Positions 14,981 through 32,000 of a stretch of DNA of 32,000 bases are shown piece after piece. The notes beneath the pieces are model-generated. The model worked only from the letters and a program-made list of their open reading frames with translations. It did no database searches and was not told the DNA's origin. This stretch comes from Geobacter metallireducens GS-15. GTDB lineage: Bacteria > Desulfobacterota > Desulfuromonadia > Geobacterales > Geobacteraceae. The translations under genes and the position numbers were made by a program. The stretch covers positions 1,590,001 to 1,622,000 of the forward strand of contig NC_007517.1 in NCBI RefSeq assembly GCF_000012925.1. The letters run 5' to 3'. Position 1 is the stretch's first letter, and the number at the start of each line of letters is the position of its first letter.

Positions 14981-15784
14981 ATGGTCCTTGATTATCGTGA
15001 ACGGAAACCGGTCAACAAAAACCGGCCAAAATCGAAACCCGTCGGCCTCTTTGTCATAGCATTCGGCCTGGTTGCAGTCTGCTCCTTTGCCCTTGGTGTT
15101 CTGACGGACCGTTTTCTGCTTTCTCCTCGCAGCCTTAAGGTCGAAAATGCCCAGGCACCCCCTTCTGTCGCGCCGAAGAACGGCCCTCAGGAGCAACCCT
15201 CTTCAACTGCCAAGGATTCGGTGACCGCCAAACAGGGTGCAGCCCCTGCGCTTCAGGAACCATCTCTGACTTTTTACGAGACGTTACCCAAGGGCGGAAA
15301 AATTATTCTCGGGAGCGGCATGAATCCCAAAATGCCAAAGGTGCTAACCGCATCCCCCGCAAAAACAGCCACTGAGGCTTTGCCAAAAAATGACCAGGTT
15401 TTGCCGCGACAGACAGAAGCTGTGATGGTGCAAAAAGCCGACAAACCTGCCATTCCTGTCTCATCTCCAGAGAAAAGTGCGGCTGCAGATAATGCTGAAC
15501 GCCCGAAGGCGGCCGGCGAAACAGCCAAAGAAGTATCGGCGAAAAAAACTGCGGTATCCAAGGGGAAATTCTCCGTGCAGGTGGTATCCGCAAGGGAACG
15601 CAAGGAAGCAGACGCCATCAAATCGGGGTTACAGGAAAAGGGGTTTGCTGCCTATGTTGTTGAGTCCGTCGTTCCCGGTAAGGGGACATGGTATCGCGTA
15701 CGGGTGGGGAAACAAATGGATCAGTCGGCTGCCGCGAAGCTTGCAAAACAGCTCGGTAAGGCAGCAATAATAATTCCTGAATAG
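14981..15784 (+). CDS. SPOR domain-containing protein (septal peptidoglycan-binding)
   Basis: N-terminal TM helix, a low-complexity Ala/Pro/Lys linker and a C-terminal SPOR fold (FSVQVVSARERKEADAIKSGLQEKGFAAYVVES...WYRVRVGKQMDQSAAAKLAKQL). Confidence 0.85.
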   Translation: MVLDYRERKPVNKNRPKSKPVGLFVIAFGLVAVCSFALGVLTDRFLLSPRSLKVENAQAPPSVAPKNGPQEQPSSTAKDSVTAKQGAAPALQEPSLTFYETLPKGGKIILGSGMNPKMPKVLTASPAKTATEALPKNDQVLPRQTEAVMVQKADKPAIPVSSPEKSAAADNAERPKAAGETAKEVSAKKTAVSKGKFSVQVVSARERKEADAIKSGLQEKGFAAYVVESVVPGKGTWYRVRVGKQMDQSAAAKLAKQLGKAAIIIPE

Positions 15785-16122: not shown

Positions 16123-17469
16123 ATGAATTCTGACCGCAAACAACGGTTGCTGACGCTGACCCCGGAGCGGCTGGCGGACGCCCTGCTGGAACTGGCCGCC
16201 CGCGATGATGCTGCCGACGATCTGGTGGAACGGATGATCGCTACCCCCTGGGAAAATATCGAGCGCTTCAGGAAAAGACTGGCCGGCATCAAGCGCAGCC
16301 GCCGCTTCATCCGGTGGGGTGAATCCGCGGCCTTTGCCCGTGAACTGCTTGCCCTCCTGCAGGATGTACAGGCGGGAGTCTCCGATCCCCGCACGGGCGC
16401 CGAGCTGGTTGCCGCCTTCTACGAGTGCGACAAGGGGGCCCTGGGAAACTGCGACGATTCCAGCGGCCATGTGGGTGATGTCTTCCGGCATGATGCCAGA
16501 GAACTCTTCGTCCACTACGCCTCCCGCTGCGACGAGAAGGAGTGGCTGGGGGATCTGGTTTACAAGGTGAGCCGTACCGATGACTATGGGGTGCGGGATG
16601 CCTTGGTCAAATGCGCCATCGACTATCTGCCGGAGCCGGTCATCCGGACCATGGTGAAACGGTTTCAGAAAATGGCCGACGGCGAGAGCGACGAATACCA
16701 CAAACGGCACTGGCTGGGGCTGGCCGAGTCCCTTGCCCGGCAGCTCAAGGATGCCCCCCTGTTCGAGCGGACACGGCGCGCCTCGTGGGGGAGTCTCTCC
16801 ACCGCAGCCTGCGTCGACATAGCCCGGGTATATTTGGAGAGCGGCGACGGGCAGACGGCCCTGGCGTGGCTCGAGAAGATTCCGGTGACGGAGAACTTCA
16901 TGGCGGAGGATCGGGACTCGCTGCTGCTGGAGGTCCATGGCCGACTGGGGAACCCAGCTCGGCAGGCCGACGTCGCCTGGCGGATCTTCAGGCGTCACAG
17001 AAGCCTTGCCTCCCTGACGCGACTGCTGGACGTAATCGGCAGTGACCAGAGGGATGCCGTAGTGGCAGGGGAAGTTGCCGCCATTCTCGGGGAGGATCGG
17101 TTCTCTCCGGGGGATGCCGCCTTTCTGGTGGAGGTCGAGCGCCCCGACGACGCGGAAAACTATCTCCTCAGGCATGCCGACGCGCTTAACGGCGACGACT
17201 ACAGCGGGCTTCTCCCCCTGGCCGAGGCCATGGAGCAGAGCGGTCGCCACCTCTGCGCTTCCTTGCTGTATCGGGCACTGCTCGATTCGATCCTCCGCCG
17301 GGCCCAGACCAAGACCTATCCCCACGGTGCCCGGTATCTCCGCAAGCTCGATAAACTCGCCGGGACCATTACCGACTGGCGCACCTTTGAGTCCCATGAC
17401 TTTTACAAGGAGAATCTCCGGCTGAACCACGGCCGGAAAAGCAGTTTCTGGTCCCGTTACGGGGAGTAA
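16123..17469 (+). CDS. Conserved hypothetical alpha-helical protein, 448 aa (from memory it resembles the DUF6880-type family; unverified)
   Basis: ATG with GAAGGA upstream, strong GC3 bias in this frame and a balanced charged/helical composition. The C-terminus reads ...YPHGARYLRKLDKLAGTITDWRTFESHDFYKENLRLNHGRKSSFWSRY. The longer antisense ORF (15937..17616) is Gly/Pro-rich, has no RBS and is taken to be a shadow ORF. Confidence 0.8.
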   Translation: MNSDRKQRLLTLTPERLADALLELAARDDAADDLVERMIATPWENIERFRKRLAGIKRSRRFIRWGESAAFARELLALLQDVQAGVSDPRTGAELVAAFYECDKGALGNCDDSSGHVGDVFRHDARELFVHYASRCDEKEWLGDLVYKVSRTDDYGVRDALVKCAIDYLPEPVIRTMVKRFQKMADGESDEYHKRHWLGLAESLARQLKDAPLFERTRRASWGSLSTAACVDIARVYLESGDGQTALAWLEKIPVTENFMAEDRDSLLLEVHGRLGNPARQADVAWRIFRRHRSLASLTRLLDVIGSDQRDAVVAGEVAAILGEDRFSPGDAAFLVEVERPDDAENYLLRHADALNGDDYSGLLPLAEAMEQSGRHLCASLLYRALLDSILRRAQTKTYPHGARYLRKLDKLAGTITDWRTFESHDFYKENLRLNHGRKSSFWSRYGE

Positions 17470-19588: not shown

Positions 19589-19843
19589 ATGCTGCAGCGG
19601 GTACAGGAACAGATCAGAGTCGGGGCCGTCTTTGGCCCGGGGCCGTCCATCCACCCGGTCTGGTTCGACTGGCGGCAACAGAAACACGCCATAGAGAAGG
19701 TCACCTACCGCTGGCGGCACATTGCGGGCAATGCCCTCCTGCTTCACTTCGCCGTTACCGACGGCACTGCCCTCTATGAGCTGATCTACAACTCCCGGGA
19801 ACAACTCTGGACCCTGGAAGCGGCCGATGCGGAGGTCGTGTGA
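19589..19843 (+). CDS. Hypothetical 84-aa protein embedded in the lexA-dinB operon
   Basis: The ATG lies 3 nt after the lexA stop. Its stop overlaps the dinB GTG start in GTGTGA (4-nt overlap). It has GC3-biased codons and no recognisable motif: MLQRVQEQIRVGAVFGPGPSIHPVWFDWRQQKHAIEKVTYRWRHIAGNALLLHFAVTDGTALYELIYNSREQLWTLEAADAEVV. Confidence 0.65.
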   Translation: MLQRVQEQIRVGAVFGPGPSIHPVWFDWRQQKHAIEKVTYRWRHIAGNALLLHFAVTDGTALYELIYNSREQLWTLEAADAEVV

Positions 19844-21081
19844 GCGGCCGGGTCATCATGCACGTGGACATGAACGCCTTTTTCGCCAGCGTGGAGCAGC
19901 AGCACGACCCCGCGCTCAGGGGCAAGCCCATCGCCGTCATCGGCTCCGCAGCCCGCACCGTCATCACCACTGCCTCCTACGAGGCCCGGGCCTTTGGCGT
20001 CAAAACCGGCATGACCGTCTGGCAGGCACAACAGAAATGCCCCCAGATCATCCTCGTCACCGGAGACAACCGGAAATACACCTACACCTCCGCCCGGATC
20101 GTCGAGATGATGAAGCAGTTCACCCCGCTGGTGGAGGTCTTCTCCATCGACGAGGCCTTTCTCGACGTCACCGGCTCCCTCTCCCTGTATTCCAGCGCCG
20201 AGCGGATCGCCTTTCTCCTCAAGGCCGAGATCCGGCACCACTTCGGCCTTACCTGCTCCATCGGCATCGCCCCCAACAAGCTCCTCGCCAAGCTCGCCTC
20301 GGAGATGAAAAAGCCCGACGGCCTCACCGTCATCAAGCCCGACGACGTTGCCCCGGTCCTCGAAACCCTGCCGATCAAGGAACTCTGCGGTATCGGCGCC
20401 AAGATGGAGTGCCAGCTGAACCTCCTGGGGATCAGAACCTGCGGCGAGTTGGGCCGCTACCCGGTGGACCGGCTGATGCGCAAATTCGGGATAGTGGGCG
20501 AGAAGCTCCACCTCATGGGGCAGGGGATCGACGACTCCCCGGTAGTCCCCCACGAAGAGGCCGAGGAAGTCAAATCGGTGGGCCACTCGACGACGCTTGA
20601 GCACGACATCGAGGACCGGCGGGAGATCCTTAGGTGGCTCCTCCAACTCTCCGAGATGGTGGGGCGCCGGGCCCGCAGATATAACGTCTGGGGAAAGACC
20701 GTCACCCTCTCCATCCGCTACGCCGACTTCGACACCTGGGTAGGGAGGCAGGAAACGCTCCCCCACCACATCAACCAGAGCGATGACATCTACCGGGCCG
20801 CCGTCGCCATCCTCGATACTCTTGTCCTGGAGCAGCCGGTAAGGCTCCTGGGGGTAAGGCTCAGTAACCTCCGCTACGAGTCGAACCAACTGCCGCTCTT
20901 CGAGGAGGAGCGGAAGAAGGTGCTCCTGGCCGGGGCCATGGACCAGGTGAACGACAGGTTCGGCGACTTCGCCGTCACCTTTGGGAGCCTCCTGGACAAG
21001 GAGCGGCGCCAGGAGAAGGGCTCCCACGTCATCTCCCCCGCCTGGCGGCCGGAGGGGATCAGGAATGTGGATGTGAAGTGA
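19840..21081 (+). CDS. dinB: DNA polymerase IV (Y-family translesion polymerase)
   Basis: IMHVDMNAFFASVEQ, FSIDEAFLDVTG, GIAPNKLLAKLASEMKKPDG and the HhH segment LPIKELCGIGAK. GTG start preceded by GGAGG. Confidence 0.95.
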   Translation: MSGRVIMHVDMNAFFASVEQQHDPALRGKPIAVIGSAARTVITTASYEARAFGVKTGMTVWQAQQKCPQIILVTGDNRKYTYTSARIVEMMKQFTPLVEVFSIDEAFLDVTGSLSLYSSAERIAFLLKAEIRHHFGLTCSIGIAPNKLLAKLASEMKKPDGLTVIKPDDVAPVLETLPIKELCGIGAKMECQLNLLGIRTCGELGRYPVDRLMRKFGIVGEKLHLMGQGIDDSPVVPHEEAEEVKSVGHSTTLEHDIEDRREILRWLLQLSEMVGRRARRYNVWGKTVTLSIRYADFDTWVGRQETLPHHINQSDDIYRAAVAILDTLVLEQPVRLLGVRLSNLRYESNQLPLFEEERKKVLLAGAMDQVNDRFGDFAVTFGSLLDKERRQEKGSHVISPAWRPEGIRNVDVK

Positions 21082-21314
21082 ACACCCGAACCTCAGACAC
21101 TGGTAATCCCGATTATTTCTACGAGGCATGATAAAATAAAAGTATATTTCTTGATTTGTAGAGCCCATCACGGCCGACCTCTCTGAGGCATGATGCAGCA
21201 GAGGCCATGATGATTGGTCTCCGGGGGTTCATACACCTCGGCTGACTGGAGTCTCTCCCCAAAGAACTGCAACGCTGATAATCCATTATCACTGATCTCT
21301 CAAGGAGGATTTGC

Positions 21315-23244: not shown

Positions 23245-24402
23245 ATGACGTCACGTACCACAGCAATTTTCGGTGTTTTCGTTGCTATCTCGGCATCCGC
23301 CACATTGATGGTGGGGGATAGCCCTGTCCATGCCGCATCCTGGGGGCTCTGGAACGACCCCCACGGCGGTATTGTGAAATCCGTCCCCCGTCCCGCGCCT
23401 GCACCGCCACCTGTTGCTCCCCCCAAGGCAGAAGTTCCTCCCGTTCCCTCTCAAGACTCGGAAAAACATTCCGATACAGCCGCGTTAGCCGAGACTGCCC
23501 CGGCTACGTCATCGTCAGCCGAGACAAATCCCCAATCTTCCGCTGCAGACTCGATTCCTTCGGACAGTGCCGCCGTTCCGCCCGCTGTCACCGATGCGAC
23601 TGGAACTGTTGCGTCCGACAACGAGCCCGGGTCTCCCGTTCTGATGGCCACCGAGCCTGCCGAAAAAGCCGTCGCTGCTGTAGCAACGGAGAATCCCGGT
23701 ACTACTGAAAACCGGCAGCCTGTCGTTGCGGAATCGCCAGCGAAGACCGTGGCTGATGATACTACGATTCCGGTTCAGGAGCAGGGCGCCATTGGTACCA
23801 GTGTTGCCGATCAAGTGCCTGCGACTGGTGAGATGCCGGCGACTAAGGAAGTGCCTGCTCCCAATCCCGTGGTGCTTGCCGGGGTGGATCAGCCCACGTC
23901 GGTTCCCCCGCAGGCTGGCGATGCCTATGTCATCGGTGCCGGCGATGTTCTCGATATCGCGGTCTGGCGCGACGAGAGCCTGACCAAGACGGTGGTGGTG
24001 CTTCCCGACGGGACCATTTCGTTTCCCCTTATCGGTGTGGTCAAGGCGGGTGGGAAGACCGTGGAGCAACTCAAGGATGAGATCAGGACGCGCCTTTCGA
24101 GCTACTTTTCCGACCTGACCCTCTCCCTTGAGGTGCGGCAGGCCAACAGCATGATGATCTTTGTGGTGGGAAAGGTGAATTCTCCCGGGCGTCATCCGAT
24201 CAGCTCGCCTGTGAACGTGTTACAGGCCCTGGCCATGGCGGGCGGGGTAAATCCCTTTGCCAAGAAGGATGACATCAAGATTTTCCGCCAGGACGAGGGG
24301 AAAACCGTCATCTTTTCCTTTGCCTACAGCGAGGTGTCCCGGGGTAACCGGCTGGAAGAGAATATTGTCCTGAGGCGCGGTGACCTGATCGTCGTCCCCT
24401 GA
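23245..24402 (+). CDS. Polysaccharide export protein (Wza/Poly_export family, PEP-CTERM-locus type) with a long low-complexity N-terminal extension
   Basis: Signal peptide, then about 180 aa rich in Ala/Pro/Ser/Thr/Glu, then the Poly_export plus SLBB core (YVIGAGDVLDIAVWRDESLTKTVVVLPDGTISFPLIGVVKAGGKTVEQL...MIFVVGKVNSPGRHP...VLQALAMAGG...LRRGDLIVVP). Confidence 0.9.
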   Translation: MTSRTTAIFGVFVAISASATLMVGDSPVHAASWGLWNDPHGGIVKSVPRPAPAPPPVAPPKAEVPPVPSQDSEKHSDTAALAETAPATSSSAETNPQSSAADSIPSDSAAVPPAVTDATGTVASDNEPGSPVLMATEPAEKAVAAVATENPGTTENRQPVVAESPAKTVADDTTIPVQEQGAIGTSVADQVPATGEMPATKEVPAPNPVVLAGVDQPTSVPPQAGDAYVIGAGDVLDIAVWRDESLTKTVVVLPDGTISFPLIGVVKAGGKTVEQLKDEIRTRLSSYFSDLTLSLEVRQANSMMIFVVGKVNSPGRHPISSPVNVLQALAMAGGVNPFAKKDDIKIFRQDEGKTVIFSFAYSEVSRGNRLEENIVLRRGDLIVVP

Positions 24403-24427
24403 TCCGATTTAATCGACGAGGCTTGCC

Positions 24428-25660
24428 ATGTCTTTGCCATGCCGCAGACCGGTTTCGGCCGTGCAGGTGATCTCTGCCGCCGCAGCCCTGATCGGAACTG
24501 CCCTTACAATGCTTCCCGTTTCCGCCTTCGCTGACGACTTCCGTCTCCTGGGTGCGACGGCCCTGCAACAGGAGTATATCGACAATCTGTTCATGTCTCC
24601 CGACGATCGGAAGAGTTCATTTATCACCACTCTTTCGGGCGGATTCGAGGCAACGGAACGGACCGAGCGGCTCGATGCCGACCTGACGCTCAAGCTGGAC
24701 CAGATCTTTTACACCGATGAGAACAGGCTCGGCAATTCGCTGAACCAGCTTTACCGGGGAGGTGCCCGCTACCGGCTCACGGAGCTTCTGACCCTGGGTG
24801 CGTCAGCGAAGTATGAGCTGAACAACCGCCCCGACCAGGACATCGAGCGGACAGGGCTCATCGTGGAGCCGGTCACCCGGCACCGGCAGGAATACGGGGC
24901 CACGGCCAATTACATCCTGAGCGAGACAATGTCCACGGCCCTTTCGTACTCGTATCTGCAGGATGACTTCAATGACCGCACCAACACGCAGAACAGCTCC
25001 CACGATCTCTCCGTGGTGCTGGAGCGGAATCTAAGCGCTTACCTGCCGGACCTGACCGGGAGCCTCATTTTCGGCTACGGCAACTACCAGACGCGGGAGG
25101 CCACGGACACAAAGGTTGAGCAGTACCTGGCCATGGCCGGGATCTCGTGGTCCTACACCGAGCTCTGGAAACTGTTTGCCAATCTGGGGGCCAGCTACAC
25201 CACGTCGGAATTCGACACTCTTGCCGGCTCATCGCTTGTCCGTAACGGCGAGCACAGTTGGGGGGGGACGGGGAAGGCCGGGGTCAGCTACAGGGATGAG
25301 TACACTGCCGGGACCCTTGCCTTCAGCCAGGGAATCGTGCCGGCATCGGGGAGATCGGGCGCAAGCCGCCGCACCGGCCTGACCCTCGATCTGAGTCGGC
25401 GCTTCACGGAAGAATTGACCGGCTTCCTGTCGTCCGGGTTCTTTCTGAACCGCTCCGACAGGGGAGAGTTCTCGGCGGGCGAAATCGACGAGACCACCTT
25501 CAATGCGGGGATTGGCGCCCGGTACAACGTGAGCAGGGACTTCTCCCTGGAGGCGCGGTACGGCTATGCACGGATCGACTACGGGGTGTCCGGACAGACG
25601 GCGGAGCGCAACGGTGTGATGATGAGCCTGGTCTACCGGTATCCGTTTCTGGAGAAATAA
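24428..25660 (+). CDS. Outer-membrane beta-barrel protein of the type found in PEP-CTERM/exosortase EPS loci
   Basis: Signal peptide ending SAFA. Alternating hydrophobic/polar beta-strand periodicity runs throughout (e.g. GATANYILSETMSTALSYSY, GISWSYTELWKLFANLGASYT, LEARYGYARIDY, VMMSLVYRYPF). It sits between the exporter and the chain-length determinant, as in other such loci. Confidence 0.7.
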   Translation: MSLPCRRPVSAVQVISAAAALIGTALTMLPVSAFADDFRLLGATALQQEYIDNLFMSPDDRKSSFITTLSGGFEATERTERLDADLTLKLDQIFYTDENRLGNSLNQLYRGGARYRLTELLTLGASAKYELNNRPDQDIERTGLIVEPVTRHRQEYGATANYILSETMSTALSYSYLQDDFNDRTNTQNSSHDLSVVLERNLSAYLPDLTGSLIFGYGNYQTREATDTKVEQYLAMAGISWSYTELWKLFANLGASYTTSEFDTLAGSSLVRNGEHSWGGTGKAGVSYRDEYTAGTLAFSQGIVPASGRSGASRRTGLTLDLSRRFTEELTGFLSSGFFLNRSDRGEFSAGEIDETTFNAGIGARYNVSRDFSLEARYGYARIDYGVSGQTAERNGVMMSLVYRYPFLEK

Positions 25661-25682
25661 TTGAGAAAGTGCGAGGCGTAAG

Positions 25683-27242
25683 ATGGAAGCAGAAATCAAA
25701 TCGTTCGGCGATATCGTACGGATCGTAAAGCGGCGCAGGCTGAGCCTCATCGTTCCGGCTGCGGTCATATTTGCGATGACGCTCGTGGCCGCAGTGGTGT
25801 TGCCGCGCATCTACCGTTCCACCTCCACGATCCTCATCGAGGAGCAGGAGATTCCCCGCGATTTCGTCATGACCACCGTGACGAGCTACGCCGAGGAGCG
25901 TCTCCAGACCATCAACCAGCGGATCATGAGCTCCACGAAACTCCTGGAGATCATCAACCGCTTCAATCTCTACAGCGACCTGCGCAAGAGCAAGACCACC
26001 GAAGAGATCATCTCCCAGATGCGCGGGGACATCAAATTCCAGACCATCAGCGCCGATGTTGTGGATCGCCGCACCGGCAGGCCCACCGCCGCCACCATCG
26101 CCTTCTCCCTCTCTTACGATGGGAAGAGCCCGGCAACGGTCCAGCAGGTGTCGAACGTCCTGGCATCCCTCTACCTGGAGGAGAACCTCAGGGTTCGCGA
26201 GCAGCAGACCCTGGGAGCCACCCGGTTCATGGAAGAGGAAATGAAGGATGTTCAGGCAAAGCTCGTGGAGATCGAGAGAAAGATCGCCGATTACAAGCAG
26301 CGCAACGTGAGCGCGCTGCCCGAGCTTGCCCAGTTGAACATGCAGACACTTGACCGGAGCGACCGGGACGTGGACCAGTTCCATGACCAGCTGCGAATGC
26401 TGCGGGAGAAGGAAGGGTATCTGGAGGCCCAGCTTTCCAGTATCCCCACGGACGACGCCAACACCGACAAGGGGCGGCTGCGGGAATTGCGGGTGAAGCT
26501 TGTGGACCTCAAGACCCGCCTCTCCGATGCCCATCCCGACGTGATCAAGGCCCGCTCCGAGATTGCCGCCCTTGAAAGACAGCTCAAGGGGTCGGGACGC
26601 AATATGGAAAGCAAGCCCGACAATCCTGCCTACGTGACCCTCTCGGCCCAGCTGGCCAGCACCCGGTCCGAGATCGAATCGGTCAAGCGCCAGGTGCAGC
26701 TGGCCCAGGGCAAGCGCGACAGTTACCGCCGCCGCCTGGAGGCTTTCCCCCAGGTGGAGGAGGGGTACAAGGTGCTGCTCGTGGAGCGGAACAACCTTCA
26801 GCTCAAATATGACGATCTCTCCAAGAAGTTCATGGAAGCCAAAGTGGCCCATGGCCTCGAAAAGGAGCAGATGGGGGAACGCTTCACCCTCATCGACGCG
26901 GCCCGGCTCCCCGAGAAACCGGTGAGCCCCAATGTGCCGGCCATCCTCGTTATCGGCCTGATTCTCGGGCTGGGTGCCGGCATCGGCACCGCCGCCTTCA
27001 GGGAATACGGCGATCAGTCCGCCCACGGCATCGAAACCCTGGCACGGGCCACGGCCCTGCCGGTGCTCGCCGCGATCCCCGAGATCGTCACCCTGGAGGA
27101 AACCGACGTCCGCAAGCGGCGTTATCGGATGGCGGCAGCCGGGGTGGCCATGGTCATCATTGTGGCGATTCCGCTTATTCACTTCTTCGTCATGGATCTG
27201 GATATCATCGTGGCCAAGATGATGCGGCGGCTCTCCGTCTAG
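25683..27242 (+). CDS. Polysaccharide chain-length determinant (Wzz/PCP family, PEP-CTERM-locus type)
   Basis: N-terminal Wzz motif with a TM helix (IVKRRRLSLIVPAAVIFAMTLVAAVVL...YRSTSTILIE). A long periplasmic coiled coil follows (LRVREQQTLGATRFMEEEMKDVQAKLVEIERKIADYK...). The second TM helix comes after the PEKPVSPN motif, and there is an additional C-terminal TM helix. Confidence 0.9.
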   Translation: MEAEIKSFGDIVRIVKRRRLSLIVPAAVIFAMTLVAAVVLPRIYRSTSTILIEEQEIPRDFVMTTVTSYAEERLQTINQRIMSSTKLLEIINRFNLYSDLRKSKTTEEIISQMRGDIKFQTISADVVDRRTGRPTAATIAFSLSYDGKSPATVQQVSNVLASLYLEENLRVREQQTLGATRFMEEEMKDVQAKLVEIERKIADYKQRNVSALPELAQLNMQTLDRSDRDVDQFHDQLRMLREKEGYLEAQLSSIPTDDANTDKGRLRELRVKLVDLKTRLSDAHPDVIKARSEIAALERQLKGSGRNMESKPDNPAYVTLSAQLASTRSEIESVKRQVQLAQGKRDSYRRRLEAFPQVEEGYKVLLVERNNLQLKYDDLSKKFMEAKVAHGLEKEQMGERFTLIDAARLPEKPVSPNVPAILVIGLILGLGAGIGTAAFREYGDQSAHGIETLARATALPVLAAIPEIVTLEETDVRKRRYRMAAAGVAMVIIVAIPLIHFFVMDLDIIVAKMMRRLSV

Positions 27243-27286
27243 CAGGACGTTCCTGCTGAGACCTGACTGGAAAGGAGCAGAGTGAC

Positions 27287-28465
27287 ATGGCGGAAACATC
27301 GACAGCTCTTGAACGGATGAGAAAAAAGGTCCTGGAGTCGGCCCGTTCCGACAGCCAGGAAGCTGTTTCAACCGAAGCGCCCCGGCTCAAGGCGGCACTG
27401 CCGGCGCCCGAAACAGAGGCGGTTGTCTTCGAACCGGTGGAGCAGCGGGCCGAAACGGCGCCTAAACGGAAGCTGTCCACCTTGGGGCGGATGGGAAAGA
27501 CTGCCTTTGGTCTGATCTCTTCCCGTCGGGAGAACGCGCTTCCTGCGACAGTAGATTCAGGGACTGCTGCAGATCTACAATACGAGGCAACGCAACCAAT
27601 GGCTGAAGTGGACACATGTTGCGGAAATCTCGCCGTGCAGGCGCCTGAACCGGTGGTTTCACCGGACGAAGTTATAGACACTGCTGGAGTAAGTTGCCCC
27701 GAAGAGCCTTGCATCGATCACACGGATGATAAGCGCCAGCCCTCCGTCGTCAACAGGGAAAAGATCGGCTGGGTGTCGCCGGCCTATACCGTCTCGCGCT
27801 CCGTCCGCCTCGACCCGCAGCTGGTGGCGAGAAATAAATGTGTCGCCTTTTTGTCCGACGCCGACGAAGTCGAATCGTACCGCGTGCTCCGAACCCAGAT
27901 TCTCCAGCGCAGCCGCGAGCGGGGCGGAAACACCATCATGATCACGAGCGCCCTTCCGGGCGAGGGGAAGACCCTCACCGCCATCAACCTGGCCCTCACC
28001 TTTGCCAAGGAGTTCCGTCAGACGGCTCTCCTGGTCGATTGCGACCTGCGCCGCCAGCGGATCCACGAACTGCTCGGCATCGGGGGCGAAAAGGGACTCA
28101 ACGACTATCTGCTGGACGACTGCCCCATATCCGATCTCATGGTATGGCCCGGTGTGGAGAAGCTCACTCTCATATCCGGCGGCAGGACCATCACCGAAAG
28201 CAGCGAACTGCTCGGTTCACCCCGCATGAAGGAACTGGTGGAAGACATGAAGCACCGCTACCCGGAGCGGTACGTGATCTTCGACGTGCCGGCCGTCCTC
28301 AGCGGGGCTGACGCCCTGGCCTTCGCGCCGCTGGTGGATCACATTGTCGTCACCGTCAAGGCGGGCGAGACCCCCATGTCCGAAGTCACCCGGGCGATCA
28401 GGATGCTCCCCCGGGAGAAGGTGCTGGGGGTGGTGCTGAACCGCCGGCGCAGGGGCGACGCGTAG
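27287..28465 (+). CDS. BY-kinase-like P-loop ATPase (EPS / PEP-CTERM-locus 'tyrosine autokinase' family), with no C-terminal Tyr cluster
   Basis: Walker A ITSALPGEGKTLTAINLA, Walker A' LLVDCDLRRQ and Walker B YVIFDVPA. It has an N-terminal extension of about 165 aa with no recognisable domain. The C-terminus is ...VLNRRRRGDA and contains no tyrosines. Confidence 0.85.
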   Translation: MAETSTALERMRKKVLESARSDSQEAVSTEAPRLKAALPAPETEAVVFEPVEQRAETAPKRKLSTLGRMGKTAFGLISSRRENALPATVDSGTAADLQYEATQPMAEVDTCCGNLAVQAPEPVVSPDEVIDTAGVSCPEEPCIDHTDDKRQPSVVNREKIGWVSPAYTVSRSVRLDPQLVARNKCVAFLSDADEVESYRVLRTQILQRSRERGGNTIMITSALPGEGKTLTAINLALTFAKEFRQTALLVDCDLRRQRIHELLGIGGEKGLNDYLLDDCPISDLMVWPGVEKLTLISGGRTITESSELLGSPRMKELVEDMKHRYPERYVIFDVPAVLSGADALAFAPLVDHIVVTVKAGETPMSEVTRAIRMLPREKVLGVVLNRRRRGDA

Positions 28466-28472
28466 CAAAGAC

Positions 28473-29456
28473 GTGGAACTCGCCGCAGGTCATGACGGGG
28501 GCACGATCCGGGCCATCAGGTTCGCGGTCGTTGCCCTCGTCCTGTTTCTGGCTGAATTCCTGGCCCCGGAGGCCGTCTTCGAGCCCCTCAACCGCACCAC
28601 CGCCATCATGACGGCGGAACTCTTGGGGCTCATGGGGCGCCATGCCCAGGCAGCAGGCACCCTGGTACGGCTCGACGGCTTCTCTGCCCGGGTCGTGACG
28701 GAATGCTCCGTCATCAACCCCGCCATCCTTTTTGCCTCCTTCGTCCTTGGTTCCGGCGCCTCTCCCCGCGCTAAGGCTGCCGGCATCCTGGCCGGTATTC
28801 CCATCCTCAACTCAATCAATGTCCTTCGCATTGCCGCTGTCATTGCCACGGGCGCGGCGGTTCCAGCCCTCTTCGAGGCGGTTCACGTCTACGTCGGTCA
28901 GATACTCATGGTGGGCGTGGTGTTATTCGGGGCGATTCTCTGGAGCCGGTGGGCCTCCGCCGATGGGGTTGCAACCTTTCCGTTTGTTCCCGGGGTACTG
29001 GCGTGGTCGGTGGTTCTCTTCGTTCCGTGGCTCTTCATGAACCGTTGGTACGTTGCCGTGGGCGATATACCGCTCAGGTTTTTGTTTGAAATGGCCGGAA
29101 GGCCCGTGGAGCTTCCCGTCGAGCGTCCTCTCTACTACCAGACCTTCAACAGCGTCCTTTTCGCGTCACTGGTCCTGGCGACAGGCTCCATCCCGATCCG
29201 GCGAAAAGCCGTATTCCTTGCAGGGGGGCTGGCTCTGCTGGCCGTGGGGCATCAGCTCTTCCGCGTCTGTAACATCCTCTTGTCCGCTTTCGGCATCCGG
29301 GAGGCCTACCTTGCCTCCGTGGCCATTCATGAAATCCTCGGATATCTCCTGCCGTTTCTGCTGTGGTTCATCCTGTGCCATGGGGTATCAAGACCGTCTG
29401 CGCACCGCCAGGGCTCCGCCGAGAAAGACCGCCGAGAGGCCGATACCCCAAGGTGA
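28473..29456 (+). CDS. Exosortase-family transpeptidase (short form; apparent tandem duplication)
   Basis: Polytopic membrane protein with the exosortase/archaeosortase catalytic signature in the expected order: Cys78 in VVTECSVIN (28704-28706), Arg119 in PILNSINVLRI and His138 in EAVHVYVG. It is the last gene of the EPS export operon, where EpsH/XrtA-type genes sit. The only in-frame start is a GTG. Confidence 0.85.
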   Translation: MELAAGHDGGTIRAIRFAVVALVLFLAEFLAPEAVFEPLNRTTAIMTAELLGLMGRHAQAAGTLVRLDGFSARVVTECSVINPAILFASFVLGSGASPRAKAAGILAGIPILNSINVLRIAAVIATGAAVPALFEAVHVYVGQILMVGVVLFGAILWSRWASADGVATFPFVPGVLAWSVVLFVPWLFMNRWYVAVGDIPLRFLFEMAGRPVELPVERPLYYQTFNSVLFASLVLATGSIPIRRKAVFLAGGLALLAVGHQLFRVCNILLSAFGIREAYLASVAIHEILGYLLPFLLWFILCHGVSRPSAHRQGSAEKDRREADTPR

Positions 29457-30728
29457 CATCGCCGGCACGAAATTCGAGTCCGGCAACCCCATTGACGAAA
29501 AAAGATCGAGCCGCGGGAAGACCCCGCCGGTGCGCTGGTCGGTCACCGGTTTTCCCGAGGAAATGAGACGGGAGATGAGCTGGTCCGGCGTTTCATTGGG
29601 GTATTGGGCCTTCAGTACCGCCACGGAACCCGCCACGTGGGGCGCCGCCTGGGACGTCCCGCCCATGGTCGAGCCGGCGGCAGTGATGAATGCCCCCGGC
29701 GCCAGCATGTTGAGGAACGTGGCGGTGTTCGACATGCAGGGGACCTTGTCGGCACCGCTGGTCGCGTCGGTGCAGGCGGTCCACTTGATCCCTCCCACGT
29801 TCGCGTCGTACACCGCACCCACCGACACCGCGGCCGGGGTGCAGGCGGGGCGTGAGATGCCGTCTGTATACCCTTCGTTCCCTGCCGAGATGACTGTCAC
29901 GATTCCCGCGCTCTTGGCGTTATTGATGGGGGTCACGTAGGGATTGGTCCCCCTGTTGCTGCATGCTGCGGTGTTGCGGCTACCATCCCCCAGGCTCATG
30001 TTGATGGCCACAATATTGTACGTTGCCCGGTTTGAAATGGCCCAGTTGATTCCTGCGATAACCAGGGCATCGGAAGAGGTGCCGTCGGGATTGAACACGT
30101 CGAGAACGGCTAGTTTCGCACCGGGAGCGACACCGGCGACAATACCGGCCACGTTGGTGCCGTGGCCCAGGTCGTCCAGGGCGTTGTCGTTGGTGGCAAT
30201 ATCCACCGATGCCGCCACCTTGCAGTCGGCCGGAACCCCCGGCGCGGTGCAGGAGCCGAAGGCCGGCAGCGTATAGTTTATCCCGCTGTCGATTATCGCC
30301 ACGGTTGTGCCGCTGCCGGTTTTCCCGATGGCGGCGAGTGGGGGCTGGCCGATGAGGGGGAGGCTCTCGGCGAGATGGGGCCGGAGGACGCGGTTTTCGT
30401 ACACAGCCTGGATGCCGGGAGCCGTCAGGAGACGGTCAAGGGCCTTTGTGGATCGAATTCTGGCGAAGAGCATCGGCAGGTGGGAGTAATCTGTTACCAC
30501 CTCTCCCCCCTCGGCCCTGAGTGCGCCGATAACGTGGGATTTGGCAATGGCACCCTCATCGAGCAGGATCAGCATCTCCTGGGGAGCGCCGGACGAAAGC
30601 CGTTGCCGCATGCCCGGTGGTTCAACGGGCGCAGCGGCAGCGACTGACGCGGGGCTTTGACTGAAAAGGGCGGCAAGGAATGTGGCGGCGAGGATTTTCC
30701 GGATGACGGGAAGACGATGTGCGGGCAT
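29388..30728 (-). CDS. Subtilisin-like serine protease (peptidase S8) with I9-type propeptide and a C-terminal exosortase-type sorting signal
   Basis: Catalytic triad in TVAIIDSGI (Asp), LGHGTNVAGIVAG (His) and GGTSQAAPHVAGSVAVL (Ser), with the oxyanion Asn in SAGNEG. The C-terminus VPAMSPWGIGLSAVFLGGALAVRRRS* is motif plus TM helix plus basic cluster. I prefer the start at MPAHRLPV... (30728, GGAGA RBS). In-frame alternatives are at 30740 and 30761. Confidence 0.92.
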   Translation of the reverse strand: MPAHRLPVIRKILAATFLAALFSQSPASVAAAAPVEPPGMRQRLSSGAPQEMLILLDEGAIAKSHVIGALRAEGGEVVTDYSHLPMLFARIRSTKALDRLLTAPGIQAVYENRVLRPHLAESLPLIGQPPLAAIGKTGSGTTVAIIDSGINYTLPAFGSCTAPGVPADCKVAASVDIATNDNALDDLGHGTNVAGIVAGVAPGAKLAVLDVFNPDGTSSDALVIAGINWAISNRATYNIVAINMSLGDGSRNTAACSNRGTNPYVTPINNAKSAGIVTVISAGNEGYTDGISRPACTPAAVSVGAVYDANVGGIKWTACTDATSGADKVPCMSNTATFLNMLAPGAFITAAGSTMGGTSQAAPHVAGSVAVLKAQYPNETPDQLISRLISSGKPVTDQRTGGVFPRLDLFSSMGLPDSNFVPAMSPWGIGLSAVFLGGALAVRRRS

Positions 30729-30842
30729 GACAGTCTCCATTTGGCGGGAGGATTGATTCATGCTTAAGAATGGCAGATGAAGTTCTCTTCGGTGTTACGA
30801 CGGGGCCGAAAGTGTGTGAATGTGCGTGGATTTTGGGTGGGA

Positions 30843-30873: not shown

Positions 30874-31419
30874 TCAAGACTGGCGCTTGCGCCGGATGCC
30901 GGCGAGGCCCGCAAGTCCCGAGCCCATGAGGAAGAGGGCAGGGGGGACGGGGACGGTGGTGGCGTTGGCGGGTGTTATGACCGTAACGATCCCTGGGCCG
31001 CTTGGGGCGACCTCGGTGATAATAGGGGGGAGTGGTTGTTGGGTGAAGAATGCGCTCATGCTTCGTATGCTGCTTGAACCTATCGTCGCCATGCGGCTTC
31101 CGCCGGCGCCGAAGGTGTCCGATGTGTCGAAGAAGAATCCCTGGGAGTAGGAGAGTTGGGTGAAGGTAAAGTCCATGGGTTCCACGACGGTCACGATGCC
31201 GGTTTTTTCAGCTGGAGCAATGACGGTGATGATCCCCTTGTCCTTTCTATCTTCAATCGGATTGATGACAGTGAGAATGGCGTTGCCACCGCTCAGGCTC
31301 TGGTTCAGGCCGGGAAGCTTAACATCAGCGCTTGAGGAGAAATCGGTGTATGCCGCCAGGGCATTGCCGGCAAGTCCGAGCAGGAGGGCCGCGGCGATTG
31401 TGGCGGTGATTGTTTTCAT
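30874..31419 (-). CDS. PEP-CTERM sorting-domain protein with internal short repeats
   Basis: GGAGGAACC RBS plus ATG at 31419, and signal peptide MKTITATIAAALLLGLAGNALA. The C-terminus VPVPPALFLMGSGLAGLAGIRRKRQS* is PEP-like motif plus TM helix plus Arg/Lys cluster. Four copies of an x-I-[ILV]-T-V-[IV]-x-P motif are present. Confidence 0.85.
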   Translation of the reverse strand: MKTITATIAAALLLGLAGNALAAYTDFSSSADVKLPGLNQSLSGGNAILTVINPIEDRKDKGIITVIAPAEKTGIVTVVEPMDFTFTQLSYSQGFFFDTSDTFGAGGSRMATIGSSSIRSMSAFFTQQPLPPIITEVAPSGPGIVTVITPANATTVPVPPALFLMGSGLAGLAGIRRKRQS

Positions 31420-31442
31420 TGGTTCCTCCATGATCCGGAATG

Positions 31443-31472
31443 GAAAAAGAGGGGCCTCGGTCGAGGCCCCTC
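31443..31472 (-). terminator. Rho-independent terminator after the PstS-like gene
   Basis: On the minus strand, GAGGGGCCTCGACCGAGGCCCCTC forms a 10-bp stem and is followed by TTTTTCC. It starts 26 nt downstream of the stop at 31498. Confidence 0.7.
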
Positions 31473-31497
31473 GAAGATACACCGCAGGTGGGCGGGG

Positions 31498-32000
31498 TTA
31501 GGGAAGCTGCGGGTTGATGGCACCGAGAAGATAAGGATACTCGGCTTCAGAGCCCTTGAAGAACTTCATCTCGTCCTTGGTGGCCCAGTACTTGGCCTTG
31601 GTGGCGGGGACGTTGGCCGGGCTGGAGGCGTAAGCTACCAGAGCGTCGACTACCGGGCGCTGTGCAAGGGAGGTGCGGGCAGCGTCCTCATAGACCCACT
31701 GGGTGGTCCAGAAATCGTAGACGCCGTTGCGGATGCTGTAGCGGGTACCGAAGTGGCCGTTGTACTTGACAGCCTTCACGTTCTGGCTGGTGCCGGCCGC
31801 ACCAACGGTCTGGTCGGCGTCTGCATAGCCTATGGCGCCGATTGCGGAGCCGGAGGGGGTTGCGGTGCTGTTACCGTTTACGCACTTGATGAGGTCGGTG
31901 GAGCCTTCGTTGAACCAGACGGCGCCGGGGTTCTCGAAGCTGGCGAGGCCACTACCCCAACCATTGCCGCGGACCACCGAGAAGTCGAGGGCTGCTGCTG
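31498..32000 (-). CDS. Periplasmic substrate-binding protein, PstS/PBP-like (3' part; the reading frame is open to the window edge)
   Basis: ...RGNGWGSGLASF...SAIGAIGYADADQ...VKAVKYNG...IRNGVYDFWT...VVDALVAYASSP... loosely follows the phosphate-binding-protein-like (PBP_like_2) motif order. The frame continues upstream of the track's GTG at 31977 (..AAALDFSVV..). The functional call is tentative. Confidence 0.55.
   Translation of the reverse strand, partial: AAALDFSVVRGNGWGSGLASFENPGAVWFNEGSTDLIKCVNGNSTATPSGSAIGAIGYADADQTVGAAGTSQNVKAVKYNGHFGTRYSIRNGVYDFWTTQWVYEDAARTSLAQRPVVDALVAYASSPANVPATKAKYWATKDEMKFFKGSEAEYPYLLGAINPQLP

Follow-up and report, generated by a model that had tools for sequence, protein, structure and literature searches.

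Exosortases are widespread and are tied to the biofilm matrix and to the display of surface proteins, and they are mechanistically almost unstudied. To our knowledge, the archaeosortase ArtA of Haloferax volcanii is the sole member of the superfamily that has been dissected by experiment, and archaeosortase mutagenesis reportedly showed that the Cys, Arg, and His residues are required for activity. The eight-transmembrane (TM) exosortases of the XrtA/EpsH type (TIGR03109, TIGR02602, and PF09721) have a catalytic core preceded by extra helices and a polysaccharide operon context. Exosortase H (XrtH, TIGR04177) is specific for the IPTL(xxWG)-CTERM signal, and a separate partner family, XrtH_assoc (NF041730/PF28117), has already been curated for a four-helix protein of similar size to the second half described below, encoded directly downstream of short xrtH genes. 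Here, we analyzed a stretch of 32,000 nucleotides of the Geobacter metallireducens GS-15 chromosome (NC_007517.1, positions 1,590,001 to 1,622,000; hereafter the window), which carries an xrtH gene of 327 codons at positions 28473–29456 on the + strand. Comparison with these systems indicates that its product is probably an exosortase H composed of two homologous four-helix modules, in which a catalytic core is fused to a duplicated, Cys-less, and noncatalytic partner.

The xrtH gene starts with GTG, stops with TGA, and lies exactly where the original prediction had placed it in the list of open reading frames (ORFs). Its product has the same sequence as the G. metallireducens protein WP_004511621.1/ABB31682.1, which bears the database name exosortase H, and is 93% identical to a G. 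grbiciae protein of the same name. The XrtH model TIGR04177 (158 positions) matches with 100 bits (cutoff of 86), its positions 5–156 corresponding to residues 15–162, and the exosortase/archaeosortase signature TIGR04178 scores 38.9 bits (cutoff of 23), while PF09721 matches the same part with E = 4e-10. The window protein thus resembles the described XrtH enzymes in matching the full model, in its Cys/Arg/His set, and in the IPTL-type tail encoded next door, and it is a bona fide, previously annotated member of the family. However, both model and annotation cover half of the protein; the other XrtH proteins are 166–206 residues long and lack the second half, which the family description does not mention. 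We refer to the part covered by the models as module 1 (residues 15–162; 28515–28958, +) and to residues 168–305 (28974–29387, +) as module 2, with a short and poorly conserved linker between them (approximately residues 163–167; 28959–28973, +).

All exosortase and archaeosortase models in NCBIfam and Pfam end at about residues 160–162, and no exosortase hidden Markov model (HMM) in either collection covers residues 163–327. Scanned alone, the C-terminal half gave no match beyond a trace of NF041730 (6 bits, E = 8.8, and cutoff of 35). We therefore ruled out that the second half represents the ordinary C-terminal helices of an exosortase, since no NCBIfam or Pfam model spans residues 1–327 and the XrtA, EpsH, and PF09721 models all end near residue 160. 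It is just as improbable that two genes were joined into the long ORF by a fusion or assembly artifact, as the same continuous ORF recurs in at least 111 diverse clusters, finished genomes included; nothing was found in favor of either explanation, and together we give them almost no weight.

The comparison with the longer enzymes places the additional sequence at opposite ends of the core. In the XrtA (261 positions), 8TM_EpsH (241 positions), and PF09721 (254 positions) models, only the last ∼150 positions align, to residues 12–160 of the window protein, which indicates that the N-terminal helices of XrtA and EpsH are absent from this enzyme and agrees with the earlier observation that its N terminus is comparatively short. 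The XrtA and EpsH models reach 14.7 bits against cutoffs of 208 and 105, with model positions ∼84–260 aligned. Thus, in XrtA and EpsH the extra helices precede the core, whereas in the window protein the extra module follows it. ArtA shares the superfamily and the conserved Cys, Arg, and His with the window protein. However, it belongs to a distant subfamily (TIGR04125 at 16–21 bits), acts on the PGF-CTERM signal, and has no known Cys-less second module.

The original prediction held that residues ∼195–305 repeat residues ∼40–150 segment by segment. Smith–Waterman alignment of residues 1–162 with residues 163–327 gave a raw score of 61 in the proposed register, with R119 opposite R264 and H138 opposite H286. 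This score was reached by none of 2000 global shuffles and by 5–11 of 2000 shuffles preserving local composition, so the self-alignment stands up to the former, is marginal against the latter, and on a single sequence suggests a repeat only. Profiles of the two halves built from nine sequences were aligned by hhalign with a probability of 32%, and deep profiles of ∼100 sequences with a probability of 95.9% (P = 6e-9, score of 55.4, and 115 collinear columns). The register is as claimed: the alignment includes the LMGR/MAGR match, the NPAILFASFVLG.../NSVLFASLVLA... hairpin, and the R119/R264 pairing, in which the Arg is retained. As controls, reversed profiles scored 14, profiles with columns shuffled within blocks of 10 or 20 columns scored 12 ± 2 (maximum of 18), and profiles in which intact 20-column blocks were reordered scored 28 ± 4 (maximum of 40). 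Two segments were also significant when the halves were compared piecewise, namely the first TM helix with the periplasmic helix (28.9, P = 2e-6) and the hairpin formed by the second TM helix, basic loop, and third TM helix (32.1, P = 1e-8).

The similarity was reproduced with independent enzymes. A module 2 profile aligned with the profile of 15 stand-alone short XrtH cores at 95.1% (P = 3e-8, 113 columns) in the same register, and the Cys-bearing stretch of the cores fell opposite a 12-residue gap in module 2. XrtH_assoc, a membrane family of similar size that served as the negative control, scored 0.5% against the same cores, which argues that the method is not indiscriminate. Judged from this significant and collinear profile similarity, with clean controls, module 2 is homologous to the exosortase core and has lost the Cys segment.

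Conservation was examined in an alignment of 112 diverse two-module family members. Cys78, the predicted nucleophile (codon at 28704–28706), Arg119 (28827–28829), and His138 (28884–28886), all encoded on the + strand, show no variation (112/112 members). Module 2 lacks a conserved Cys, as had been predicted; sporadic Cys residues occur in 7/112 members at nonequivalent positions. Where module 1 has TECSVIN, module 2 has the motif YYQTFN (residues 221–226; 29133–29150, +), and its long helix carries H260-x3-R264-x2-N267 (29250–29273, +), the three residues being conserved in 78%, 85%, and 54% of members, respectively. Further conserved positions in module 2 are W186 (96%), Y193 (95%), Y221 (86%), T224 (87%), F225 (91%), G252 (99%), P294 (99%), and W298 (84%). 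With residues conserved at 78 to 99%, module 2 is under selection. Of the catalytic set, the Cys is therefore missing from module 2, the Arg is present as R264, and the equivalent of the His is not conserved: H286, which had been taken for a retained catalytic His, is His in 20/112 members (18%) and otherwise Tyr, Ser, Asn, or Leu, and it lies in the last third of the alignment, where similarity is not significant. Likewise, the CSV following from Cys78, which had been regarded as unusual, is ordinary in XrtH, where position 79 is Thr or Ser and position 80 is Ala, Val, Pro, Ser, or Gly. The linker varies as well; the spacing from W157 to F171 has a median of 16 residues across the family and ranges from 12 to 44.

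An exhaustive HMMER search with the profile of the C-terminal half found module 2 in 214 clusters at 50% identity. Among 161 sequences, comprising the 150 matches listed and closer homologs, 111 were complete two-module proteins, so that at least 111 clusters have this layout. Two modules are the norm in a large clade labeled exosortase H, and the rarity that the original prediction had attached to the architecture did not hold. Genomes of Desulfuromonadales, Geobacteraceae, Oryzomonas, Syntrophobacteraceae, and other Desulfobacterota carry relatives, in some cases two in one genome.

Such pairs are seen in two metagenome-assembled genomes of Desulfobacterota, each of which encodes two separate fused XrtH copies (L010/L011 and L012/L013), indicating that paralogous XrtH systems coexist in one organism. 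Some members are three-part proteins of 640–944 residues, in which a two-module XrtH is followed by a further 300–600 C-terminal residues that include a signal-anchor-like helix and, after it, a soluble region (P0031, P0056, P0062, P0063, P0066, P0093, P0098, P0114, P0115, P0119, P0124, and P0127).

The AlphaFold2 model of the window protein, computed on an alignment of 33 sequences, has a mean predicted local distance difference test (pLDDT) score of 88.2 and a predicted template modeling score of 0.80. Confidence is low solely at the linker (pLDDT of 64 at residues 161–170) and in the C-terminal tail (pLDDT of ∼60). Module 1 is predicted to begin with a TM helix (residues 6–30) and an amphipathic periplasmic helix (residues 33–53), followed by a three-stranded beta meander (residues 58–73) and Cys78 in its TECSV context, in line with the earlier claim that a single TM helix precedes the nucleophile. 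Similarly, module 2 is predicted to begin with a helix at residues 171–207, which leads into a coil without strands (residues 208–221). The YYQTFN motif then precedes the short helix of module 2 (residues 222–236), the counterpart of residues 81–92 in module 1. Each module continues with a long helix (residues 98–129 in module 1 and 242–273 in module 2) and a last helix (residues 131–161 and 276–303, respectively). The two halves thus share their predicted helix layout when compared as secondary-structure strings. Together with the profile statistics and the replication with stand-alone cores, the matching layouts bear out the proposal of an active core joined to a Cys-less, diverged copy.

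A basic loop follows the short helix in each module, SPRAKA in module 1 and IPIRRKA in module 2, and both the N terminus and the C-terminal tail of the protein are basic. The tail (residues 306–327; 29388–29453, +) is poorly conserved and would be cytoplasmic. Because each module crosses the membrane an even number of times and has a basic hairpin loop, we infer that the two modules have the same orientation and form a parallel pseudo-dimer. In such an arrangement, Cys78 and YYQTFN would both be located at the periplasmic face.

The proteins retrieved with the profile of the N-terminal half under the label exosortase H fall into two populations, two-module proteins of ∼270–345 residues and single-module proteins of 166–206 residues. 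Wherever downstream DNA existed, short XrtH proteins of 175–188 residues were followed by an overlapping gene for a membrane protein of 191–213 residues, the start of which overlaps the xrtH stop. A separate, overlapping gene occupies this partner position, which corresponds to the place of module 2, in loci L004, L005, and L006. In L004 and L006, the partner belongs to Pfam PF28117 (XrtH_assoc) and passes NF041730 (43.7 bits, cutoff of 35), and the XrtH beside it passes TIGR04177. A profile of 120 XrtH_assoc sequences aligned with module 2 at 82% (P = 1e-5, 64 columns) over a region spanning Y-x-TFN, the RR[RK] hairpin, and the conserved His of the long helix; this alignment scored 38.2, as opposed to 15 ± 3 after within-block and 21.5 ± 4 after block-order shuffling. 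In L001 and L002, the partners have diverged further, and they aligned with module 2 at 72% (P = 3e-5).

XrtH_assoc has the invariant residues F96, N97, and H130, and its AlphaFold2 model (pLDDT of 86.3) shows a helix at residues 11–54, three strands, the motif SSYTFN, and helices at residues 97–111, 115–148, and 156–189. In these models, the layout of XrtH_assoc is that of the exosortase core, the three-stranded meander included. XrtH_assoc therefore resembles module 2 in its Y-x-TFN motif, RR[RK] loop, long-helix His, and predicted helices. However, it keeps the meander that module 2 lacks, and unlike module 2 it has no detectable similarity in sequence to the exosortase core. We also considered module 2 as a member of NF041730 and rejected this assignment, as it scored below the cutoff, with a best E value of 0.83 among nine relatives. 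Since module 2 fails the HMM cutoff and XrtH_assoc has no direct similarity to the cores, the link between the two is plausible but not proven.

Candidate stand-alone copies of module 2 were inspected as well. In L003, a gene of 147 codons follows xrtH, and its product aligns with module 2 over the full length (97%, P = 1e-10). At positions 1141–1200 of this locus, a short motif recurs across a change of frame, once in the tail of XrtH (...WIRFVVHFG...) and once where the next ORF starts (MIALRFVVSF...). The locus was rejected as proof of a separate module 2 gene because its junction is ambiguous and may contain a frameshift. The matches of the module 2 profile to apparently stand-alone proteins of 149–204 residues were set aside likewise, being mostly 5′-truncated fused genes (in P0042, the ORF begins within the core), and none of them matched NF041730.

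Several observations weigh against a duplicated origin of module 2 and a family with both fused and split members. Compared alone, the last third of the two halves (the part with the Arg and His helices) scored 12.9, against a shuffle maximum of 13.6, and because its sequence similarity is not significant, homology of this part is argued from the matching predicted helices. Searches of PDB sequences with both half-profiles and a Foldseek search of the AlphaFold2 model against the PDB returned nothing meaningful. The canonical XrtH_assoc profile has no similarity to the exosortase cores at 0.5%, and its link to module 2 is moderate. The split in L003 may be a frameshifted fused gene, a recent split by a small duplication, or an assembly error, and P0050, a candidate stand-alone module 2, was rejected as a truncated fusion with an ORF that is open to the contig edge. 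Experimental work on XrtH or on the partner did not turn up in the literature searched.

Part of this evidence would suit a different origin, in which module 2 is an unrelated four-helix domain of the XrtH_assoc type that was fused to the core and resembles it by convergence or composition. The Arg/His segment that falls short of significance, the canonical XrtH_assoc family without similarity to exosortase cores, and the single-sequence score that local shuffles attain all point that way, and HH-suite probabilities are optimistic for membrane proteins. Nevertheless, two segments are independently significant and occur in collinear order, the profile score of 55 exceeds every shuffle, including the block-order shuffles that preserve hairpins (maximum of 40), the result replicates with independent exosortase cores, XrtH_assoc attains only 0.5% against those cores, and the helix series of the two halves match. 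We consider a fused unrelated domain unlikely on this balance.

In the reading that we consider probable, module 1 constitutes a complete minimal catalytic core with Cys78, Arg119, and His138, a small XrtH core without the ∼100 N-terminal residues of XrtA and EpsH. Module 2 would have arisen by duplication of this core, followed by loss of the cysteine-bearing segment, and would have evolved a conserved polar set of its own, consisting of Y221, T224, F225, N226, H260, and R264. Module 1 may cleave the IPTL-type signal of the neighboring protease via an acyl intermediate on Cys78, while module 2 would complete the small core as an obligate, noncatalytic yet functional partner, most probably by contributing to the groove for the TM helix and signature motif of the cargo or for the acceptor. 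As the original prediction suggested, module 2 might serve as a docking site for the two different sorting signals that neighboring genes encode. Geobacter and many other Desulfobacterota carry the partner in fused form, and elsewhere it would be encoded, as XrtH_assoc or a similar protein, by a separate, translationally coupled gene downstream of short xrtH. The concept of an inactive paralog kept as a partner is shared with membrane pairs of enzyme and pseudoenzyme such as the rhomboid-like iRhom, an analogy without homology. Unlike those pairs, however, the two members of the XrtH pair lie in a single chain or are the products of adjacent genes.

The polar residues of module 2 could instead form a second active site, in which Tyr221, Thr224, His260, and Arg264 at the periplasmic face bind and activate a lipid or polysaccharide acceptor for the second half-reaction, after the acyl-enzyme has formed on Cys78. 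They sit where module 1 has its catalytic residues, the Y-x-TFN, basic loop, and His landmarks recur in XrtH_assoc, and the gene belongs to a polysaccharide export operon. However, this chemistry is purely hypothetical, and the same residues could equally bind cargo or help to pack the two modules against each other. We regard a second active site as quite improbable, slightly more so than an unrelated domain. A broader proposal, which is possible yet doubtful, builds on module 2 as a noncatalytic partner: minimal exosortases might be obligate two-module machines, with XrtH_assoc as a far-diverged pseudo-exosortase, a pseudo-core whose conserved Tyr/Thr/His/Arg site docks the signal or presents the acceptor, and, by extension, the extra N-terminal helices of eight-TM exosortases such as XrtA possibly a remnant of this duplication in permuted order.

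Searches of the literature on XrtH, IPTL-CTERM, pseudo-exosortases, and exosortases combined with AlphaFold or Geobacter, which extended to papers and not to the curators' family descriptions, found no account of a two-module duplication. Nor do the searchable papers describe a link between fused XrtH and the split pairs of xrtH and partner, and in the Geobacter papers GSU1979 is just listed as a differentially expressed gene, “epsH (exosortase).” The exosortase H annotation and the partner family are already known. As far as the searchable literature shows, the duplicated origin of the long XrtH seems to have gone unremarked. What is gained concerns the evolution and structure of a known family and is not a new system. 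Current family models annotate half of these two-module proteins, and an active core with a Cys-less copy provides a concrete structural hypothesis, the parallel pseudo-dimer. It singles out Y221, T224, H260, and R264 of module 2 alongside C78, R119, and H138 of module 1, and the pairing would explain the small membrane-protein gene behind short xrtH genes.

In the window, xrtH is the last of five closely spaced genes on the + strand. The four upstream genes (23245–28465, +) encode a polysaccharide export protein, an outer-membrane protein, a chain-length determinant, and a tyrosine autokinase; they are separated by gaps of 22–44 nucleotides, and xrtH starts 7 nucleotides past the stop of the kinase gene. 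Their products resemble the equivalogs of the XrtA/PEP-CTERM system, all below the cutoffs (248 versus 279 bits and 208 versus 231 bits, for example), which suggests a distinct, XrtH-linked version of an XrtA/PEP-CTERM-type polysaccharide system. A scan for promoters and terminators around the locus was not informative.

Convergent to xrtH lies a gene for a serine protease of the subtilisin family (S8) with 457 residues (29388–30761, −), identified by subtilase matches and by an IPTL-CTERM-type C-terminal signal. The tail, encoded at 29391–29468, consists of VPAMSPWG, a TM helix, and RRRS, and it matches TIGR04174 (IPTL_CTERM) with 22.4 bits (cutoff of 20.5). This IPTL-tailed subtilisin is the likely cargo of XrtH. 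IPTL-like tails also adjoin fused XrtH in L009 and L010, which represent two other genomes, and split XrtH in L005. The last 23 codons of xrtH on the + strand and the 3′ end of the subtilisin gene on the − strand share 69 nucleotides (29388–29456), such that one stretch of DNA encodes the poorly conserved basic tail of XrtH on one strand and the sorting tail of its putative cargo on the other.

A secreted protein of 202 residues is encoded further downstream (30874–31482, −). Its PEP-CTERM/VPLPA-CTERM-like tail, VPVPPALFLMGSGLAGLAGIRRKRQS, has the order VPVPP, TM helix, and RRKRQS; it scores 24.3 bits with TIGR03370, just below the cutoff of 25.35, and has several matches to PEP-CTERM tails. 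The protein contains the internal near-repeats GIITVIAP, GIVTVVEP, and GIVTVITP, and it may be a substrate of XrtH or of a different exosortase. The ORFs of 159–461 codons at 31498–31977 (−), 14981–15784 (+), 16123–17469 (+), and 19786–21171 (−) had no NCBIfam match. Between positions 719 and 15000, the window holds mutS, an AmiC-like amidase gene, glnD, xerD, and genes for phosphoglycerate mutase, UDP-glucose dehydrogenase, and a sugar epimerase/dehydratase, as well as argS. As this upstream part comprises ordinary housekeeping genes, the XrtH cluster is chromosomal, and nothing points to a mobile element. The GC content of the window climbs from ∼0.55 to 0.63 toward the XrtH cluster.

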